DNA of 64,000 nucleotides, taken from NCBI GenBank assembly GCA_963748095.1, contig CAVVIO010000023.1:42518-106517 (forward strand), in the 5' to 3' direction. Below, in pieces: positions 4,247 to 12,404 of this stretch. Position 1 is the first letter of the stretch; each line of letters opens with the position of its first letter. This DNA comes from an uncultured Bacteroidales bacterium. GTDB taxonomy: Bacteria; Bacteroidota; Bacteroidia; Bacteroidales; UBA10428. The position numbers and the translations under genes were made by a program. The notes below the pieces were generated by a model. The model did not search any database, was not told where the DNA came from, and worked only from the letters and a program-made list of their open reading frames with translations.

Positions 4247-6076
4247 ATGAAAAAAATATCAAAAATATTATATACGCTTACCGGTGTGTTATTCCTGTTA
4301 GGAATAAACTCCTGCAAAAAGGACTATTTGTCGGTGGATCACTATTCCATTTTAGCTGCCGATCAAATGTTTAAGTCAGACGCTGATGCTAAAGCTGGTC
4401 TTGTTGGTTGTTACACTATGATGCTTCCGACAAATACCGACGGAGACTGGGGTATCAAACCGAACCTGTTTATAGGTGGCCACCCAACAATGGATACCCA
4501 GGCAACAGGATGGGACAAAAACTGGAACCAGCAAAAATGGAATCCAGGAACCCCGGAACTATTAAGCGGTTGGAAACAAGCCTATATAGCAATTTCCCGT
4601 TGTAACGATTTCCTGGCCGGTCTTGCTACTGCAGAGAATATTACACCTTCTGTAAAAACTTCACTTGATGGCCAGGCCAGGGGTATTCGTGCTTTTTTCT
4701 ATATGTGGCTGGCAAAAGCTTTCGGTCGTGTACCTATGCTGGCAACAGGCGAAACTTATATTAACACACCGGCAAAGGCCCGTGCGAAAGATTTTGCAGA
4801 AATGTGGGATTTCATCATTGATGATTTGAAAGCAGCAGTTGACGAACTTGGCTGGGATCCAATGGATGGACAGTATGGACGTATTACCAAAGGTTTTGCC
4901 CTTTCATACCTGGGAGAAGCTTACATGTGGAAAGCATATCGTGTTCCTGCAGAAGCTGATGCAAACTACACTTTAGCAGCAGCTGCCTTATTACAGGTTA
5001 TTCAGAGCGGTAAATACGAATTAAATCCTTCTTTTACCACATTGTGGGATCCGGGAGCTGTATGGACAAAAGAATGTATTTGGGAAGAAGTTCTTGACGA
5101 AGGTTCACAATGGGACCAATGGTCCAATCTATCCCAGGCTCACAACTGGATGATCCATTTTGTAGCCCCTCCGTCTATCGGTGGATGGGGTACCTTGTAC
5201 CTCTCATGGGAATGGTGGAGTTCATATGAACCAGGAGATAAACGTCGTGAAGCTTCTGCAGCTACCGGTGCTGTCAAAGATATCAACCCTGCGTGGAAAT
5301 CTGCCACAAACTATGGGTACAATCCTTATCTGCAGCAGAGCTATACAGTTGGCGATTCATTAAATACCCATTATCACTTTTTAATGGGTGGTGAAGCTGC
5401 TCCTTCTATCTGGACTTTGAAATATTACCGTACAACCCTTGCAAACTATACGGCACCATGGGGACCTCAACAGATTTATTACAAACGTTATTCAAATGTT
5501 TTGTTAGACTACGCAGAATGCCTGTTCCATTTGAATGGTGGCAATGATGCAACTGCCTGGGGCTATATTAAGCAAATTCGTGATCGTGCCTGGGGTAATC
5601 TGGAAGTTGGTAAAGAAGCTGCTTTAACTGCTACTTACCTTCCTTATTATCAAAACATAACTCAATTCTTTACAGATAAAGGCGTTACAACGAGTATGGT
5701 AAAGCCTACTACTTATCCTCTTCCATTTAATACAGCCACAGTGACTGTTCCTGATGCGCAGACTTATTATACCGCGTTAAAAGCTACTAAAGGTTTTACT
5801 TCTCCGGTATGGTTGGTAGCTTTGGGTATGGAACGTCGTAAAGAATTCAATGCCGAATGGTGTCTTGCACAGGATTTGGTACGTTCTGGCTTTATAGAAG
5901 ATCACATTACACACAATTATCCAAAAGGGGTAGGTAGTGCGGATCCTAATGCTATACAAGATGATTGGCATACTTACCGTAATTTTGATTTCGATCTTCA
6001 AAGGATGGATATGCCTATTCCAACAGACGAGATATTGAAAAATCCTTTGTGCGATCAAAATGATGCTTACAAATAA
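4247..6076 (+). CDS. SusD/RagB-family nutrient-binding outer membrane lipoprotein
   Basis: Lies immediately downstream of SusC. Lipobox 'LLGINSCKKDY'. SusD-like 'ALGMERRKEFNAEW' block. Length is typical of the family. Confidence 0.9.
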   Translation: MKKISKILYTLTGVLFLLGINSCKKDYLSVDHYSILAADQMFKSDADAKAGLVGCYTMMLPTNTDGDWGIKPNLFIGGHPTMDTQATGWDKNWNQQKWNPGTPELLSGWKQAYIAISRCNDFLAGLATAENITPSVKTSLDGQARGIRAFFYMWLAKAFGRVPMLATGETYINTPAKARAKDFAEMWDFIIDDLKAAVDELGWDPMDGQYGRITKGFALSYLGEAYMWKAYRVPAEADANYTLAAAALLQVIQSGKYELNPSFTTLWDPGAVWTKECIWEEVLDEGSQWDQWSNLSQAHNWMIHFVAPPSIGGWGTLYLSWEWWSSYEPGDKRREASAATGAVKDINPAWKSATNYGYNPYLQQSYTVGDSLNTHYHFLMGGEAAPSIWTLKYYRTTLANYTAPWGPQQIYYKRYSNVLLDYAECLFHLNGGNDATAWGYIKQIRDRAWGNLEVGKEAALTATYLPYYQNITQFFTDKGVTTSMVKPTTYPLPFNTATVTVPDAQTYYTALKATKGFTSPVWLVALGMERRKEFNAEWCLAQDLVRSGFIEDHITHNYPKGVGSADPNAIQDDWHTYRNFDFDLQRMDMPIPTDEILKNPLCDQNDAYK

Positions 6077-6154: not shown

Positions 6155-6311
6155 ATTATACACTACTACCTGTCTTCTTTTAATTCTTTATAAACAACAT
6201 TAAATATGGAGTGTATACGTTCAGTGATTGAGTTTTTTGTAACTTTTTGTATAGGTTGTCAAAAAGTTTGTTAAATTTCAGATTCTTGACTTTTATAAAT
6301 AATTGTATTTC

Positions 6312-7617
6312 ATGAAAAAATTAATTCTTTTATCTGCATTATTTTTTATAGGCGCAATTGGCTTTAATAATGGATGGCTCAAAGCTCAGGATGATTGTGC
6401 TACGGAACCTCGTGGCAAAATGATTCCCTGGGAGAAAGGAGCCTGGGTTACGGGGAAATATCGGAATGTATTTCTCGATGCCGGCTATAGCCAGAAAGAT
6501 ATAGATGCAAAACTCGCTAAGGCATATTACGATGTTTTTGAGGGACCCAACAGGGTGTATTTTGAAGTTGGGGATTCAATGGGTTACGTATCCGATTTGA
6601 AAAACCATGATGCCCGGACAGAGGGGCTTTCTTACGGTATGATGGTAGCTGTTCAGCTTAATAAAAAGGAAGTGTTTGACCGCTTATGGCGCTGGACCAA
6701 AAAGAATATGCAACACCAGGGTGGCCCGAGAGATGCTTATTTTGCCTGGAGCGTTAATCCAAAAACATTAAAACATAATTCTGAAGGGTCTGCATCCGAT
6801 GGTGAATTGTATTTTGTTACCGATTTACTGTTTGCCTCCAACCGCTGGGGAAACAATACGGGGATTAATTATTACGCCGAAGCAAGAAGAATTTTGGATG
6901 CCATGTGGTCAAAGAATGGTACCGACGGTGTAATGAATGTGATTAACGTGGAACATAAAATAATTACTTTCACACCAGATAAATTTGGTTATAAATGGAC
7001 TGATCCGTCATACAATTTGGCAGCCTTTTTCGAAATATGGGCAGCGTATGCCAAAGATGGTCAACGAACAATTCTACAGGGATTGTGCTGATTCTGCAAG
7101 AGCCTTGCTTCACAGGGCATGTAATCCTGTTACAGGTTTAAATGCTGATCTTACCGAGTTTAGCGGTGTGCCTCGTTCTTCGCCCTGGATGCCGGCAGCA
7201 TTCCGTTACGATTCATGGAGAGTGCCTATGAATATTGCCATGGATTATTCCTGGTTTGCCAAAGATAAAAAATGGCAACAAACTTATGCAGAACATCTTC
7301 AGGATTTTCTTTACAGTAAAGGAATTGATGATTTTGAAGATCAGTTTAATTTGGATGGTTCAAAACCTGATTTTATTCTTCAGGCTGGAGGCTATAAAAA
7401 ATTGCGTCATTCACTCGGATTGGTTGCAACTTCTGCAGCTGCTTCAATTATGGGAACACAATGCATAAGCTGGAAATTTGTGGATGCTTTGTGGAATGCA
7501 AAACTGGAACCATATTCCGATGGATATTTCGATCCCTATTACGATGGGCTGTTGTATCTTTTCAGTATAATGCACTTAAGTGGGAATTACAGAATAATAA
7601 CTCCGGATTTAAAATAA
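6312..7617 (+). pseudogene. Glycoside hydrolase family 8 (Rex-like exo-oligoxylanase type), interrupted by a +1 frameshift
   Basis: ORFs 6303-7091 and 6985-7617 are the N- and C-terminal halves of one GH8 protein. 'ARTEGLSYGMMVAV' is present, 'ASDGELYFVTDLLFASNRW' is a near match to the GH8 signature, and 'YDSWRVPMNIAMDY' is present. The reading frame changes between '...EIWAAYAKDG' and 'NEQFYRDCADSARALL', at about 7040-7062. Removing 1 nt gives a protein of about 434 aa. Confidence 0.85.
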
Positions 7618-7672
7618 CCTGTATAGATATTAACTTGTTCTGTTATTCAGTGTGAGTTTGAGTCTGAGGAAA

Positions 7673-7740
7673 AAAACAGTTTGGAGTGTGAATTTATCGC
7701 TCTTGCGCTCTTGCTCAAAACTCACACTCCAAACTGTTTT
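7673..7740 (-). terminator. Array hairpin 1 (terminator-like on the minus strand)
   Basis: Perfect 19-nt arms aaaacagtttggagtgtga (7673-7691) and tcacactccaaactgtttt (7722-7740) with a loop of about 30 nt containing gctcttgc twice. On the minus-strand RNA the stem is followed by U7. The right arm overlaps the stop codon of copy 1. Confidence 0.6.
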
Positions 7741-8083
7741 ATATTAATGACTTTATTAATGCATATAGCATTTTAGAAATTTCTTCCAGCATTGAGTAAA
7801 ACTTCTTGAACATTTCTTGATCTATAACTTTCTGATCAGATAAGAAATCGAAAATAGCAACACATTCGAAAGCGGATCCTCTGGCAATAATGTAGAAGTT
7901 TTTTTTATCCGGCTTAGTAAATCTACCTGATCCTTCTGCAATATTCAGCATGATACTGAAAGCAGCTCTTTCAAGCTGATCCTTTTTGTTTTTACTGATA
8001 TTAGTATGCTCTAAGAAAAATGAAACATCTCTGTTAAATAACTTTGCTTTAGAATAAACTTCTAACTTTTCAAAATCGAACAT
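7739..8083 (-). CDS. Four-helix-bundle protein (23S rRNA intervening-sequence protein / Avd-like family), copy 1, intact
   Basis: 'MFDFEKLEVYSKAKLF...[19 protein letters not shown]...[15 protein letters not shown]' matches the family pattern (EKL.VY, NIAEG, A.GS..E). The ATG at 8083 is the start shared with copy 3. An in-frame ATG at 8095 exists only in this copy. Confidence 0.85.
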   Translation of the reverse strand: MFDFEKLEVYSKAKLFNRDVSFFLEHTNISKNKKDQLERAAFSIMLNIAEGSGRFTKPDKKNFYIIARGSAFECVAIFDFLSDQKVIDQEMFKKFYSMLEEISKMLYALIKSLI

Positions 8084-8121
8084 ACTTTTCAGCATGAGTT
8101 AGAGTTTGAGTCTTGAGGAAA

Positions 8122-8183
8122 AAAACAGCTGGAGTTTGAATTTATTCTGGCTCTTGCTCAAAACTCACACTCCAAACTGTTTT
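8122..8183 (-). terminator. Array hairpin 2
   Basis: Same arms as hairpin 1. The left arm is imperfect (aaaacagctggagtttga, 1-nt deletion plus a mismatch) and the loop lacks one gctcttgc copy. Confidence 0.5.
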
Positions 8184-8529
8184 ATATTAATGACTTTATT
8201 AATGCATATAGCATTTTAGAAATTTCTTCCAGCATTGAGTAAAACTTCTTGAACATTTCTTGATCTATAACTTTCTGATCAGATAAGAAATCGAAATATA
8301 GCAACACATTCGAAAGCGGATCCTCTTGCAATAATATAGAAGTTTTTCTTATCCGGCTTGGTAAATCTTCCTGAACCTTCAGCTATATTCAGCATGATAC
8401 TGAAAGCAGCTCTTTCAAGCTGATCCTTTTTATTTTTACTGATATTCAGCATGCTCTAAGAACAAATGAAACATCTCTGTTAAATAATTTTGCTTTAGAA
8501 TAAACTTCTAACTTTTCAAAATCGAACAT
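8182..8529 (-). pseudogene. Four-helix-bundle gene, copy 2, degraded
   Basis: Aligns along its full length with copies 1 and 3 but has several indels (cgaaatatagc, gatattcagcatgctc, aagaacaaatg) and substitutions. No long ORF remains. Confidence 0.8.
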
Positions 8530-8565
8530 ATTTTAGCATGAGTTAGAGTGTGAGTCTTGAGGAAA

Positions 8566-8633
8566 AAAACAGCTTGGAGTTTGAATTTATCGCTCTTGCG
8601 CTCTTGCTCAAAACTCACACTCCAAACTGTTTT
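8566..8633 (-). terminator. Array hairpin 3
   Basis: Arms at 8566-8584 and 8615-8633, with 17 of 19 positions complementary. U-tract follows on the minus strand. Confidence 0.55.
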
Positions 8634-8976
8634 ATATTAATGACTTTATTAATGCATATAGCATTTTAGAAATTTCTTCCAGCATTGAGTAAAACTTCTT
8701 GAACATTTCTTGATCTATAACTTTCTGATCAGATAAGAAATCGAAAATAGCAACACATTCGAAAGCGGATCCTCTGGCAATAATGTAGAAGTTTTTTTTA
8801 TCCGGCTTAGTAAATCTACCTGATCCTTCTGCAATATTCAGCATGATACTGAAAGCAGCTCTTTCAAGCTGATCGTTTTTGTTTTTACTGATATTAGTAT
8901 GCTCTAAGAAAAATGAAACATCTCTGTTAAATAACTTTGCTTTAGAATAAACTTCTAACTTTTCAAAATCGAACAT
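8632..8976 (-). CDS. Four-helix-bundle protein, copy 3, intact
   Basis: 114-aa ORF. It is identical to copy 1 from MFDF onward except for one residue (SKNKK vs SKNKN). Confidence 0.85.
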   Translation of the reverse strand: MFDFEKLEVYSKAKLFNRDVSFFLEHTNISKNKNDQLERAAFSIMLNIAEGSGRFTKPDKKNFYIIARGSAFECVAIFDFLSDQKVIDQEMFKKFYSMLEEISKMLYALIKSLI

Positions 8977-9012
8977 ATTTTAGCATGAGTTAGAGTGTGA
9001 GTCTTGAGGAAA

Positions 9013-9080
9013 AAAACAGCTTGGAGTTTGAATTTATCGCTCTTGCGCTCTTGCTCAAAACTCACACTCCAAACTGTTTT
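9013..9080 (-). terminator. Array hairpin 4
   Basis: Arms at 9013-9031 and 9062-9080, with 17 of 19 positions complementary. U-tract follows on the minus strand. Confidence 0.55.
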
Positions 9081-9424
9081 ATATTAATGACTTTATTAAT
9101 GCATATAGCATTTTAGAAATTTCTTCCAGCATTGAGTAAAACTTCTTGAACATTTCTTGATCTATAACTTTCTGATCAGATAAGAAATCGAAATATAGCA
9201 ACACATTCGAAAGCGGATCCTCTGGCAATAATGTAGAAGTTTTTTTTATCCGGCTTGGTAAATCTACCTGATCCTTCTGCAATATTCAGCATGATACTGA
9301 AAGCAGCTCTTTCAAGCTGATCGTTTTTGTTTTTACTGATATTAGTATGCTCTAAGAAAAATGAAACATCTCTGTTAAATAACTTTGCTTTAGAATAAAC
9401 TTCTAACTTTTCAAAATCGAACAT
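9079..9424 (-). pseudogene. Four-helix-bundle gene, copy 4, single +1 frameshift
   Basis: Split into ORFs 9176-9424 and 9079-9282. It shares the 'cgaaaatagc' to 'cgaaatatagc' change with copy 2. Confidence 0.85.
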
Positions 9425-9460
9425 ATTTTAGCATGAGTTAGAGTGTGAGTCTTGAGGAAA

Positions 9461-9528
9461 AAAACAGCTTGGAGTTTGAATTTATCGCTCTTGCGCTCTT
9501 GCTCAAAACTCACACTCCAAACTGTTTT
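9461..9528 (-). terminator. Array hairpin 5, directly downstream of tRNA-Arg
   Basis: Arms at 9461-9479 and 9510-9528. The hairpin begins 2 nt after the tRNA discriminator base. Confidence 0.55.
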
Positions 9529-9530
9529 TG

Positions 9531-9603
9531 TGACCCCGGCGGGACTCGAACCCACAACCTTCAGAACCGGAATCTGACATTCTATCCATTGAACTACGGG
9601 GCC
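9531..9603 (-). tRNA. tRNA-Arg (anticodon CCG)
   Basis: The 73-nt reverse complement folds as a cloverleaf. Acceptor stem GGCCCCG/CGGGGUC, D-stem GUUC/GAAU, anticodon stem UCAGA/UCUGA with loop UUCCGGU, T-stem GUGGG/CCCGC with loop UUCGAGU, discriminator A. CCA is not encoded. Confidence 0.9.
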
Positions 9604-9746: not shown

Positions 9747-12404
9747 ATGGAATACAATTTCAGGAAAATTGAGAAGAAGTGGCAGAAGTACTGGGAGGAG
9801 AATAAAACCTTTAAAGCTGAGACAGATACCTCGAAACCAAAGTTTTATGCACTCGATATGTTTCCTTATCCGTCGGGAAGCGGTTTACACGTAGGACATC
9901 CCGAAGGATATACGGCAACGGATATTGTCAGCAGATATAAACGTATGAAGGGTTTCAATGTATTACATCCCATGGGATGGGATGCGTTTGGATTACCTGC
10001 CGAACAATATGCTATACAAACCGGGACACATCCATCAATAATTACTAATAAAAATTGTGATAATTTTCGCCGGCAGATAAAATCGCTGGGGTTAGGCTAC
10101 GACTGGGACCGGGAGATTAACACCACCGATCCGAAATATTTCAAATGGACACAGTGGATCTTTACCCGTCTTTACAACACATGGTTCGATAACAACCTTC
10201 AGAAAGGAAGGCCTATCAGTGAATTACCTCTACCCGAAGAAATAAAAGTAAAGGGTGGAGAAGAAGTCAGAAAGTACATCGATAAAAATCGGCTTGCTTA
10301 TTACGATAATGCCCAGGTATGGTGGTGCGATCATTGTAAAATTGTATGTGCCAACGAAGAAGTACTTAATGACGGTACCCATGAGAAATGCGGGAATCCT
10401 GTAGTACGCAAAAACCTGAAGCAATGGATGCTGCGAATACCTTTATATGCAGAAAGATTGCTGAAAGGGTTGGAAGGTCTTGATTGGCCTACAGGAGTAA
10501 AAGACATGCAGAAGAACTGGATAGGCCGTTCGACAGGTGCAGAGGTAGACTTTAAGTTAGATGGATTGGATAAAAAAATAAGGGTATTTACCACCCGTCC
10601 CGACACCTTATTTGGTGCCACCTATATGGTTATTGCCCCTGAACACGAATGGGTCGGTGAAATTTCAACTGATAAAAACAGAAAAAATGTAGAAGCCTAT
10701 ATTAAAGCAGCTTCATTAAAATCAGATCTTGACAGGACGGATTTGGCCAAAGAAAAATCTGGAGTTTTTACCGGGAGATATGCCATTAATCCGGTAAATG
10801 GTAAAAAAATTCCCGTTTGGGTGGCCGATTATGTATTGCTTGGATATGGTACCGGGGCCATAATGGCCGTTCCAGCACATGATACACGTGACTTTGAATT
10901 TGCAGAAAAGTTTGATATTCCAATTGAATGCATACTCGATCCGGGGAAAGCAGCAGGGGATAATCGTGAAAAAATACTTGCCGGTAAGATGTGCTGGATA
11001 GAGGATGGCATTTATATCAATTCATCAGATAAGGAAAGAGGAATTGATATTAACGGTCTGAACAAGGAAAAAGGAATAAAAAATATAATTTTCTGGCTCG
11101 AAAAAGAAGGGTTGGGTACAGCCAAGGTGAATTATAAAATACGCGACTGGTTATTCAGTCGTCAACGTTACTGGGGAGAACCCTTTCCAGTTATACATTG
11201 GGAAGATGGTGAAATAACCATCCTTGACAAAAATGAATTGCCACTTGAACTACCCAAACTGGAAAAATACCAACCCGGAGAAAACGGGGAGTCTCCTTTG
11301 GCAAATGCAAGTGACTGGTTGGTGGTTACAGATAAGAACGGTAGAAAAGGGCGGCGTGAAACCAATACCATGCCACAATGGGCAGGATCGTGCTGGTATT
11401 ATCTTCGTTACATTGATCCTAACAATGAAAAGGAACCTTTTTCCAGCGAAAAAGAAAATTACTGGATGCCGGTTGACTTATATGTAGGAGGCGCGGAACA
11501 TGCTGTATTACATCTTCTGTACAGCCGATTCTGGCATAAAGTATTATTCGATCTGGGCATTGTTTCAACAGACGAACCCTATAAGAAATTATTCAATCAG
11601 GGTATGATACTGGCTTTTGCTTATGAAACTGCTGCCGGAGCAAAAATTCCTACCGACCTTGTTGAAGAAAGAGATGGAAAATATTTTCATAAGGAAACAG
11701 GAGAAGAGCTGAAGCAGATCGTTGCTAAAATGTCAAAGTCACTCAAAAACGTGGTTAACCCGGACGATGTCGTGCAACAAAATGGTGCCGATTCCCTGCG
11801 TTTGTACGAAATGTTCATAGGGCCGCTCGATGCTACCAAACCATGGACAGAAAAAGGGGTAAAAGGAGTGTTCGGTTTCCTGGGAAGAGTATTTAAGTTT
11901 TTTTCCGATCAGGGAAATTTCTTTGAAGGACAGGAGGATCCGCTGACATTAAAGATATTACACCAGACAATTAAAAAAGTGGCAGATGATATTGAAGATT
12001 TAAAATTCAATACGGCGATTTCCCAGATGATGATCTTTACCAACCATTGTATAAAAAAAGGTAAAGTAGCGAAAAATACTGCCGAAACTTTCATGAAAGT
12101 ACTTTCCCCATTTGCCCCGCACCTTTCAGAAGAACTGTGGGAATCATACGGCCATAATAAAAGCATTGGAAGAGAATCATTTCCGGATTACAAACCGGAG
12201 TTTCTTGAAGAAGATACATTTGAATACCCTGTTTCCATAAATGGGAAGTTACGGTTCAAACTTGAATTACCCGTAGATATTTCAAAAGACGAGGTGGAAA
12301 AGATAGTGTTAAATCATTCCAACGCTCAAAAATGGATAGAAGATAAACAAATTGTAAAAATTATCTTTGTACCAAAAAAAATTATCAATATTGTAGTAAA
12401 GTAA
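9747..12404 (+). CDS. leuS: Leucine--tRNA ligase
   Basis: Class I motifs 'HVGHPEGY' and 'KMSKSLKN'. LeuRS-type N-terminus '[12 protein letters not shown]'. Confidence 0.95.

Follow-up and report, generated by a model that had tools for sequence, protein, structure and literature searches.

To our knowledge, the proteins encoded by intervening sequences (IVSs) of ribosomal RNA (rRNA) have been without an assigned function since their discovery around 1990, and the origin and spread of IVSs are unexplained. This work concerns a relative of these proteins, a 114-aa four-helix-bundle (4HB) protein encoded by a tandem array of four gene copies in a 64,000-nt stretch of DNA from an uncultured Bacteroidales bacterium (contig CAVVIO010000023.1, positions 42,518 to 106,517; the whole stretch is referred to as the window). 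The array lies directly behind a gene for tRNA-Arg(CCG), and its genes alternate with a hairpin element of about 88 nt, here called H. A preliminary description, made from the window alone, had taken the array as a sign of recent selection for dosage or of a self-propagating cassette. Comparison with related loci makes it likely that the locus instead represents one cassette, composed of H and the 114-aa gene, which has been amplified in place behind tRNA-Arg(CCG).

Open reading frames (ORFs) of the S23p family, to which the protein belongs, have been found in insertions of the 16S and 23S rRNA genes of candidate phyla radiation (CPR) bacteria (PMC11270868). RNase III excises S23p-bearing IVSs from 23S rRNA, and in the Coxiella IVS three to four heptamer repeats lie just upstream of the ORF for S23p (PMC4990558). 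The family has also been described as Avd-like (PMC10053308), after the Avd protein of diversity-generating retroelements (DGRs). Three adjacent genes of the family, an unexplained annotation, are present in an Arthrospira strain (PMC8700078), and in biofilm of Flavobacterium psychrophilum a gene of the family and ribosomal proteins are down-regulated together (PMC5787105). A search of the available full-text literature returned no description, for this family, of a context in the trailer of a tRNA or transfer-messenger RNA (tmRNA), of element H or of tandem arrays.

Anatomy of the array

Tandem Repeats Finder reports a single tandem array in this part of the window, at 7654-9528, with a period of 448, 4.2 copies and 96% matches. 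The units measure 443, 450, 447 and 448 bp, each consists of exactly one H and one gene, and H is present at both ends, giving the layout H-(gene-H)4. The minus strand encodes all four genes, whose stop codons are at 7739, 8182, 8632 and 9079, as first described. The ORF list and the unit alignment show the four copies in the order live-dead-live-dead, the death of copy 4 being probable. Read from the tRNA outwards, the features are as follows (R1 is a covariance model of H, described below).

9530-9603, minus strand: tRNA-Arg(CCG), directly upstream of the array and co-oriented with it (ARAGORN; Rfam tRNA, 64.2 bits)
9441-9529, minus strand: H element 5, tRNA-proximal (R1 63.1 bits, E=7e-17; pattern search; alignment)
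9079-9424, minus strand: gene copy 4, with a +1 frameshift and a truncated product of 82 aa (P0061; alignment)
8993-9080, minus strand: H element 4 (R1 63.1 bits, E=7e-17)
8632-8976, minus strand: gene copy 3, intact, 114 aa (P0001; PF05635/TIGR02436)
8546-8633, minus strand: H element 3 (R1 63.1 bits; fold -36.2 kcal/mol, z = -5.3)
8182-8529, minus strand: gene copy 2, pseudogene (three 1-bp insertions, 10 private substitutions; alignment)
8097-8183, minus strand: H element 2, a variant that adjoins the diverged copy 2 (R1 51.8 bits, E=3e-13)
7739-8083, minus strand: gene copy 1, intact, 114 aa (P0002), the K34 variant (ORF list, alignment)
7654-7740, minus strand: H element 1, distal (R1, minus strand: 73.4 bits, E=4e-20; plus strand: 45.4 bits)

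Element 5 begins 1 nt past the 3' end of the tRNA; its core of hairpin and U-tract spans 9456-9528, and a CTC-periodic block follows the core and leads to the ATG of copy 4. Element 1 is the most perfect hairpin of the five and sits between the last gene copy and a convergent glycoside hydrolase gene of family GH8. Element 2 carries a private deletion of 5 nt in its loop, in addition to other changes.

The two intact copies differ at a single residue, K34 in copy 1 and N34 in copy 3. A 2-bp insertion upstream of copy 1 extends its ORF to an ATG at 8095 (118 aa), and all homologues start with MFDF. Copies 2 and 4 have in common an extra base (GCTATATTTCGA, against GCTATTTTCGA in copies 1 and 3) and a T-to-C change, which in copy 4 are the only departures from copy 3. 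Copy 2 carries, beyond the shared extra base, its private substitutions and two further 1-bp insertions.

Two features of this arrangement had been overlooked in the preliminary description. The tRNA is co-oriented with the genes and directly upstream of them, and such a position is the characteristic context of this protein subfamily; and every copy is flanked by H, which constitutes a source of homology for amplification.

A single-copy allele and the history of the array

The same locus is present in a metagenome contig of 209 kb from ENA (L001), found by exact-protein look-up, which is 99.5% identical to the window over 10.4 kb on the leuS side and 97.3% identical over 8.2 kb on the side of the polysaccharide utilisation locus (PUL). 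L001 carries one gene in the order tRNA-H-gene-H, and its two H copies form an 83-bp exact direct repeat. Near-identical strains thus have one copy (L001) and four copies (window), and the gene order leuS/tRNA-Arg(CCG)/H/4HB recurs in L001 and in two further loci (L006 and L026). Variation in copy number and conservation of the tRNA-Arg junction were both points that the preliminary description had proposed for comparison. A single-copy allele with flanking direct repeats, a repeat-bounded array and a variable copy number, the marks of amplification, have all been found. Since H stands on both sides of the single gene of L001, unequal recombination between H elements is the best explanation of the array, rather than selection for dosage.

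The ancestral arrangement would be a cassette made up of an H leader and an S23p/four-helix-bundle gene in the 3' trailer of tRNA-Arg(CCG), with a second H after the gene. The two flanking H repeats could then give rise to H-(gene-H)4, either by unequal homologous recombination or by replication slippage, and the redundant copies would subsequently decay through frameshifts.

How far the frameshifts can be trusted depends on the comparison with L001. The site in question reads GCTATATTCGA in L001, which is in frame and synonymous with the sequence of copies 1 and 3. A single T in a TT/TTT run separates copies 2 and 4 from the L001 allele, so that their change may be either a real mutation or a long-read homopolymer error. 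Other gene-breaking 1-bp differences are found in both assemblies, in GH8 in the window and in leuS and susD in L001. On account of these differences and of the single T, the death of copy 4 is probable but not certain, and copy 2, given its three indels, is convincingly dead.

The preliminary description had proposed that the array grew by duplication of a two-unit block already containing a dead copy. Two sites do group copies 2 and 4 against copies 1 and 3, but the K/N site groups 1 and 2 against 3 and 4, private changes number 12 in copy 2 and none in copy 4, and one hairpin has a private deletion. One clean duplication of a live-dead block, with clock-like decay thereafter, would not give this pattern. 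Copy 2 and its downstream H (8097-8529) are about 4-5% diverged from the other units; every private difference falls in this one contiguous stretch, and the remainder of the array is at most 0.3% divergent, which argues against a pure assembly artefact. Repeated unequal exchange or gene conversion among the units, or mixing of strains in the consensus, is needed to account for the history of the array.

Structure and conservation of element H

The five copies of H in the window stand before and after every gene of the array. The element follows the layout AAAACAGUUUGGAGUGUGAGUnnn-GAGCAAGAGCGA-nnnACUCACAC..CUGUUUU, then CCUCAAGACUCACACUCUAACUCA...AUG. An A-tract precedes a covarying hairpin of about 24 bp with a conserved 12-nt loop, GAGCAAGAGCGA, a U-tract follows it, and the downstream part is a CTC-N3 periodic block which runs up to the ATG. 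The fold energy in the window is -28 kcal/mol, and homologues range from -22 to -37 kcal/mol (z = -4 to -9). The hairpin is followed by UUUUUUU or UUUUGU, the sequence pattern of an intrinsic terminator, which is its predicted function. A simple terminator and promoter scan flagged neither H nor any promoter in the array; H was missed because its loop and stem exceed the limits of the scanner.

The structure was assessed in gap-free, hand-trimmed alignments (A3, A5) of ten loci behind different RNAs, with explicit counting of pairs. In the 24-bp stem, 86% of cells are paired, as against 34-57% in slid controls, and 17 compensatory cells are distributed over 6 pairs; none of 500 shuffles attains the observed covariation. 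The loop and the 5' arm are almost invariant. When whole leaders were aligned with MAFFT and left untrimmed, their variable middle was misaligned and RNAalifold recovered almost no structure, and this approach was dropped in favour of the trimmed alignments.

The covariance model R1 was built from ten H sequences, none of them from the window, and was searched against 87 sources totalling 875 kb. Its matches in the window are the five H sites only, at E = 4e-20 to 3e-13. Among the 80 related genome loci described below, 76 of its 79 plus-strand matches adjoin a 4HB gene, and H is found upstream of the gene in 39 loci, downstream in 16 and on both sides in 14. Rfam 15 has no family for H at the gathering threshold, and in E-value mode returned only chance matches to microRNA hairpins (E >= 0.2).

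A second property of H is its periodicity. Spacings of 6-7 nt between GAG or CTC triplets number 157 in 38 leaders, compared with 3.3 in composition-matched shuffles; a leader has on average 4.1 GAG triplets in its 5' part and 4.8 CTC triplets in its 3' part. The periodicity survives across the sequence variants GAGUGUGAG, GAGCAAGAG and GAGAGCGAG. Each ORF of the array is also flanked by 22-nt arms which form an inverted repeat with 86% complementarity. Unlike the local hairpin, this long-range pairing is not kept by covariation across homologues. An antiterminator, formed by pairing of the GAG block with the CTC block behind it in the minimum-free-energy fold of the full spacer, was likewise considered as the selected structure and rejected: manual comparison of leaders revealed no covariation at the central variable positions, and the pairing partner lies after the U-tract. 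Since neither the long-range nor the block pairing shows covariation, the local hairpin is taken as the selected structure.

The 114-aa protein

The preliminary assignment of the protein to the S23p, 23S-rRNA-IVS or Avd-like four-helix-bundle family, for which a profile search had been suggested, is borne out. The intact protein scores 87.7 bits against PF05635 (cut-off 33.8; E=7e-25) and 81.5 bits against TIGR02436 (cut-off 24; E=5e-23). An AlphaFold2 model based on 46 homologues has a mean confidence (pLDDT) of 95.1, with helices at residues 4-26, 31-51, 57-83 and 89-112. Its best Foldseek matches in the PDB are the S23p structures 2RLD and 2GSC, with template-modelling (TM) scores of 0.82-0.89, root-mean-square deviations of 1.2-2.4 and E=9e-5, and Avd is a more distant match (TM 0.7-0.8; E=0.1). 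The protein is a bona fide member of PF05635. Both 2GSC and 2RLD contain five chains, and a homopentameric toroid has been cited for S23p (PMC4990558).

The ratio of non-synonymous to synonymous substitutions (dN/dS) is 0.03-0.07 against the closest homologues, with dS saturated, and 33 columns are invariant among 46 sequences; these substitution patterns indicate that the protein is under strong purifying selection. No matches were obtained in PADLOC or PHROGs, nor were close relatives of the protein found in plasmid, phage or IMG/VR collections.

The cassette in related Bacteroidota

A scan of one genome per GTDB species yielded 496 confirmed relatives, of which the best 80 (55-85% identity) were analysed. 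They come mostly from Bacteroidales, Marinilabiliales, Cytophagales, Flavobacteriales, Saprospiraceae and Chitinophagales, and with L001 they make up 81 loci. In 60 of the 81, ARAGORN finds a tRNA or tmRNA gene that has the orientation of the 4HB gene and lies no more than 832 bp upstream of it; the modal gap between the two genes is 94-106 bp. Three further loci contain 3' fragments of tmRNA, and in 8 of the 18 negatives the upstream sequence is truncated. Where the partner lies within 400 bp (54 loci), it is tRNA-Arg with any of five anticodons in 19, tmRNA in 16 and tRNA-Leu in 11; the other partners are tRNAs for Met, Glu, Ala, Val, Lys and Asn. Conversely, 65 of the 73 stable-RNA genes in these loci have a 4HB gene within 1 kb downstream, and the other eight are without H. 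The cassette occurs behind at least 15 kinds of stable-RNA gene. As the loci were picked as the closest relatives of this protein, the association with tRNA and tmRNA genes is demonstrated at the level of this subfamily, a part of PF05635.

Some metagenome-assembled genomes (MAGs) assigned to other phyla also contain Bacteroidota-type cassettes (56-63% identity), which follow tRNA-Arg, tRNA-Leu or tmRNA; the MAGs are those of Candidatus Falkowbacteria/Patescibacteria (L066, L069), Akkermansia (L073) and Comamonadaceae (L049). These could be due to horizontal transfer or to mis-binned contigs. A conserved block, AATCCTCCACCAAAAAGTTCGAA, is found about 100-130 nt past the stop codon of the gene in four loci with different tRNA partners (L002, L003, L004 and L006, at about 6440-6470 of the locus). 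It resembles a 3'-end fragment of a tRNA or tmRNA, and its other strand reads as a start-less peptide, FELFGGGF; behind it, L004 repeats 9 nt of the tRNA-like end found upstream (TGGGCCCAC). Many close homologues reside on contigs of 500-1300 bp in short-read metagenomes (homologue list P0003-P0120). Such tiny contigs would be expected if repeated cassettes break assemblies, yet small contigs dominate the collection anyway.

Tandem copies, solo hairpins and changes of partner

In nine of the 80 loci the first copy is directly followed by another one, full or partial. Full second copies, 96-99.7% identical to the first, are present in L014, L029 and L067, the last of which also has a fourth, frameshifted copy. 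In six further loci (L005, L010, L017, L072, L074 and L008) the second copy is truncated and 77-100% identical to its neighbour. Isolate genomes are among the carriers of tandem copies: Putridiphycobacter roseus, Crocinitomix catalasitica and Fluviicola chungangensis. Since most second copies are 96-100% identical to their neighbours, these duplications are recent and independent of each other.

The hairpin can also be amplified without the gene. A Bacteroidales MAG with the orthologous leuS/tRNA-Arg(CCG) locus and a protein 83% identical to that of the window (L006) has nine H elements before a single gene (5174-5999 of the locus; 92-bp period, 97% matches). Solo H elements with no 4HB gene occur after tRNA-Leu(CAA) in L085 (1870-1934) and after tRNA-Arg(CCT) in L088 (1160-1224), and could be empty target sites or deletion products of H-gene-H. 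These solo sites came to light in an H-anchored pattern scan of metagenomes, which gave seven loci, too few for statistics. Amplification, truncation, deletion and hairpin-only expansion are all predicted by recombination between short direct repeats, and not by dosage selection.

The relationship between protein phylogeny and RNA partner is mixed. Of 57 proteins, 18 share the stable-RNA partner of their nearest neighbour, where 8.2 would be expected (p about 0.001), which reflects some vertical inheritance, an example being the leuS/tRNA-Arg(CCG) synteny shared with Labilibacter. For the other 39 the nearest relative is found behind another RNA gene; the two proteins are sometimes 86-94% identical and may even come from a single genome. 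Examples are an Arg-TCG and an Arg-CCG locus, at 91%, and two Leu loci in the same genome, at 94%. Cassettes must accordingly either relocate between stable-RNA loci or be homogenised between them. The ends of the flanking repeats vary by locus, and in some (L005, L026, L040) the last 11-16 nt of the tRNA are included. These variable repeat ends, the lack of a recombinase, transposase or reverse transcriptase nearby and the lack of close relatives in plasmid, phage and IMG/VR collections favour host recombination through H and the tRNA 3' ends as the more likely route, ahead of autonomous insertion. Judged from the sequences compared, the cassette is widespread in Bacteroidota, has repeatedly switched its host RNA gene and has repeatedly formed local tandem copies.

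Weighing the explanations

The amplification of one H-gene cassette by recombination between its flanking hairpins is preferred here over four other accounts of the array. An artefact of assembly or polishing, by which the array was falsely expanded or the frameshifts are sequencing errors in four intact copies, is very unlikely. The source is a metagenome contig, its GH8 gene has a 1-bp frameshift which is absent from the sister contig, frameshifts are numerous in the sister contig itself, and copies 2 and 4 are one homopolymer T from an in-frame allele; yet the divergence of copy 2 with its adjacent H and its three separate indels require at least two distinct units, comparable tandem copies exist in isolate genomes, and a context-dependent error should strike all four identical contexts rather than two. 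Selection for a higher dosage of the 4HB protein, the first of the two suggestions in the preliminary description, is similarly improbable and is not upheld. The near identity of three of the four units implies that the expansion is recent, and the protein is strongly constrained, both of which would suit this idea. It sits poorly with the frameshifts in two of the four copies, with the terminator-like hairpin between units, with the single copy in a 99.5%-identical strain and with those other genomes which have truncated second copies or, in the case of L006, a ninefold amplification of H only.

The second suggestion, a self-propagating cassette which would insert itself site-specifically at H or at tRNA and tmRNA 3' ends and build the array by repeated insertion, is improbable as an account of this array. 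Its appeal lies in the range of host genes (at least 15 stable-RNA genes), in the 39 of 57 nearest relatives behind a different RNA gene, in the att-like inclusion of the tRNA end in the direct repeats of L005, L026 and L040, and in the solo H sites behind tRNAs (L085, L088). Neither the cassette nor its surroundings, however, encode a recombinase, transposase or reverse transcriptase, the locus-to-locus variation in repeat ends is the signature of duplication rather than of site-specific insertion, H has been amplified alone in L006, and there are no close plasmid, phage or IMG/VR relatives; moreover, ectopic gene conversion with H copies as homology arms can account for relocation. The term self-propagating stands loosely, in an evolutionary sense, for an element found behind so many kinds of RNA gene, but is not needed to explain the array. 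A remnant of a DGR with Avd as its accessory protein, or an integron-like cassette array with H in the role of attC, is effectively refuted by missing defining genes. The fold is related to that of Avd, and a gene followed by an imperfect palindrome superficially resembles an integron cassette array. Within about 10 kb there is no reverse transcriptase, integrase or template/variable repeat, all four cassettes contain the same gene, H is anchored at tRNA and tmRNA 3' ends and carries a U-tract, S23p structures are matched far better than Avd, and PADLOC and PHROGs are empty.

Several points weigh against the preferred explanation or limit its reach. Recombination between H elements was deduced from the anatomy of the locus, and the copy numbers of four and one rest on two metagenome assemblies, both with indel differences. 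The substitutions among the four copies yield no clean duplication history. The association with stable-RNA genes was established among the 80 closest relatives and applies to this subfamily. Three ideas considered below are predictions: that the gene is transcribed together with the tRNA, that transcripts end or are processed at H, and that the protein binds H. Pairing between the GAG and CTC blocks is not maintained by covariation, leaving an antiterminator role unsupported, and the protein is near neutral (pI 7.8), unlike the basic Avd. With these points considered, the four-copy array is probably an ordinary and neutral product of recombination, a new instance of a known process. It should be regarded as a routine by-product and not be taken as adaptive amplification.

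Expression and possible function

The gene may well have no promoter of its own, being expressed by read-through from the tRNA or tmRNA promoter across H; in the window, tRNA-Arg(CCG) is the presumed source of array transcription. H would then act as a leaky terminator, and its stem of about 24 bp, in principle of sufficient length, may be an RNase III site which separates the mRNA from the stable RNA. The distal H would end the unit and, being palindromic, may also terminate the convergent GH8 gene as a bidirectional terminator. No TAnnTTTG box, the Bacteroidetes -7 motif, is present on the coding strand anywhere in the array.

The motif does occur, as TAAYTTTG, in antisense orientation near the 5' end of every copy (plus strand, 8039-8046, 8485-8492, 8932-8939 and 9380-9387). 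These occurrences may be due to chance, as the motif is found 75 times in the window against 82 expected and is not enriched.

More doubtful is the possibility that the presumed pentameric ring binds the GAG/CTC triplets spaced at 6-7 nt in H, in an autoregulation analogous to that of TRAP. A wider idea, also put forward tentatively, is that S23p proteins and their periodic hairpin leaders form one class of 'stable-RNA hitch-hikers' in rRNA (as IVSs), tRNA and tmRNA transcripts, with a ring which binds its own leader in TRAP-like fashion and with gene conversion mediated by H moving the modules between loci. If true, the ring protein would control read-through, processing or its own maintenance, and the pair of cis-element and protein, as well as its mode of mobility, would be undescribed.

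The findings have some practical consequences. A well-conserved S23p subfamily becomes tied to a second and a third kind of stable RNA, tRNA and tmRNA, with a defined and covarying cis-element. The resulting model, in which the gene is co-transcribed with a stable RNA, the transcript is processed or terminated at H and a ring protein binds the leader, is testable, and some of the carriers can be cultured: Crocinitomix catalasitica ATCC 23190 (L017, with the order tmRNA-H-4HB), Labilibacter sediminis CG51 (L026, with tRNA-Arg-H-4HB-H), Putridiphycobacter roseus, Saccharicrinis and Fluviicola. For annotation, the cassette explains tandem live and dead copies, may explain the frequent tiny contigs in short-read metagenomes and flags an RNA element absent from Rfam.

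Neighbouring genes

The array is flanked by two protein-coding genes.

6303-7617, plus strand: GH8 glycoside hydrolase gene, convergent with the array, at the end of a SusC/SusD locus
9747-12404, plus strand: leuS, divergent from tRNA-Arg(CCG)

A 1-bp difference, with the break near 7050-7091, splits the GH8 gene of the window into ORFs of 262 aa and 210 aa. On the 99%-identical contig L001 the gene is intact (424 aa). The break is either a real pseudogene or an assembly indel, and it bears on the trustworthiness of the frameshifts in the array. The array itself (7800-9400) has a G+C content of 32%, compared with about 41% in the flanking GH8 and leuS genes. The preliminary description had noted no mobile-element genes nearby, and the Pfam list of the syntenic contig agrees in containing none within about 10 kb. 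There is no rRNA in the 64-kb window, where the sole Rfam match is the tRNA.

Comparison with known systems

Several described systems share features with the cassette. Integrons can be set apart: here there is no integrase, the four cassettes hold the same gene and H is tied to tRNA and tmRNA 3' ends. The locus is not a DGR either, because it has no reverse transcriptase and no template or variable repeats. The Avd proteins of DGRs (4DWL, 8UB7) nevertheless share with the present protein the four-helix bundle and, presumably, a pentameric assembly, and Avd acts in a ribonucleoprotein with a structured RNA. The differences lie in the absence of a nearby reverse transcriptase and template or variable repeat, in a sequence identity of 5-11%, in the near-neutral charge of the protein and in its stable-RNA trailer context.

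Tandem repeats behind a tRNA gene have reportedly been described in E. coli tyrT by Egan and Landy in 1978 and by Rossi and colleagues in 1981. A 178-bp unit, said to be present 3.14 times after tRNA-Tyr, includes the tRNA 3' end and encodes the small protein Tpr. The repeats are reportedly transcribed with the tRNA and contain termination signals, and their copy number is thought to change by unequal recombination. Both tyrT and the present cassette thus form tandem repeats behind a tRNA, but the protein and the repeat sequence are unrelated, and tyrT is known as a single-species case, whereas the cassette is phylum-wide and has a conserved structured leader.

TRAP is a ring-shaped 11-mer of beta-sheets which binds GAG/UAG triplet repeats in leader RNA. 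The present system would resemble it in two ways, in a ring built of identical subunits and in a leader RNA whose 4-5 GAG triplets stand at short, regular intervals and overlap a terminator or alternative structure. The folds are unrelated, a beta-sheet 11-mer against a presumed helical pentamer, and the parallel is put forward as a functional analogy and a hypothesis only.

The closest parallel is with the rRNA IVSs of Leptospira, Coxiella, Xanthomonas and CPR bacteria. There, as is proposed here, a PF05635 ORF is carried in the primary transcript of a stable RNA. In Coxiella the ORF is bracketed by inverted repeats of 28 bp which can form a long stem (PMC4990558); here it lies between 22-nt arms with 86% complementarity, whose pairing is not kept by covariation. 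Short periodic repeats lie just upstream of it, as heptamers in Coxiella and as GAG/CTC triplets at 6-7 nt here, which suggests that ORF-adjacent periodic repeats are a family trait. Processing by RNase III at H would parallel the excision of IVSs from 23S rRNA. Decay of the ORF in some lineages and a suspected origin as a selfish element are further points of likeness. The locus is not itself an rRNA IVS, because it does not lie inside an rRNA. The cassette occupies the 3' trailer of a tRNA, or elsewhere of tmRNA, rather than an rRNA helix, so that its position does not fragment an RNA; its flanking hairpin has a conserved loop and is accompanied by a U-tract; and purifying selection is seen instead of reductive evolution, together with the formation of tandem arrays. 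By analogy, the element would work most like an IVS transplanted to a tRNA or tmRNA trailer, and the cassette class, with a function deduced from its context, appears to be an undescribed variant of the theme of S23p genes embedded in stable RNAs.

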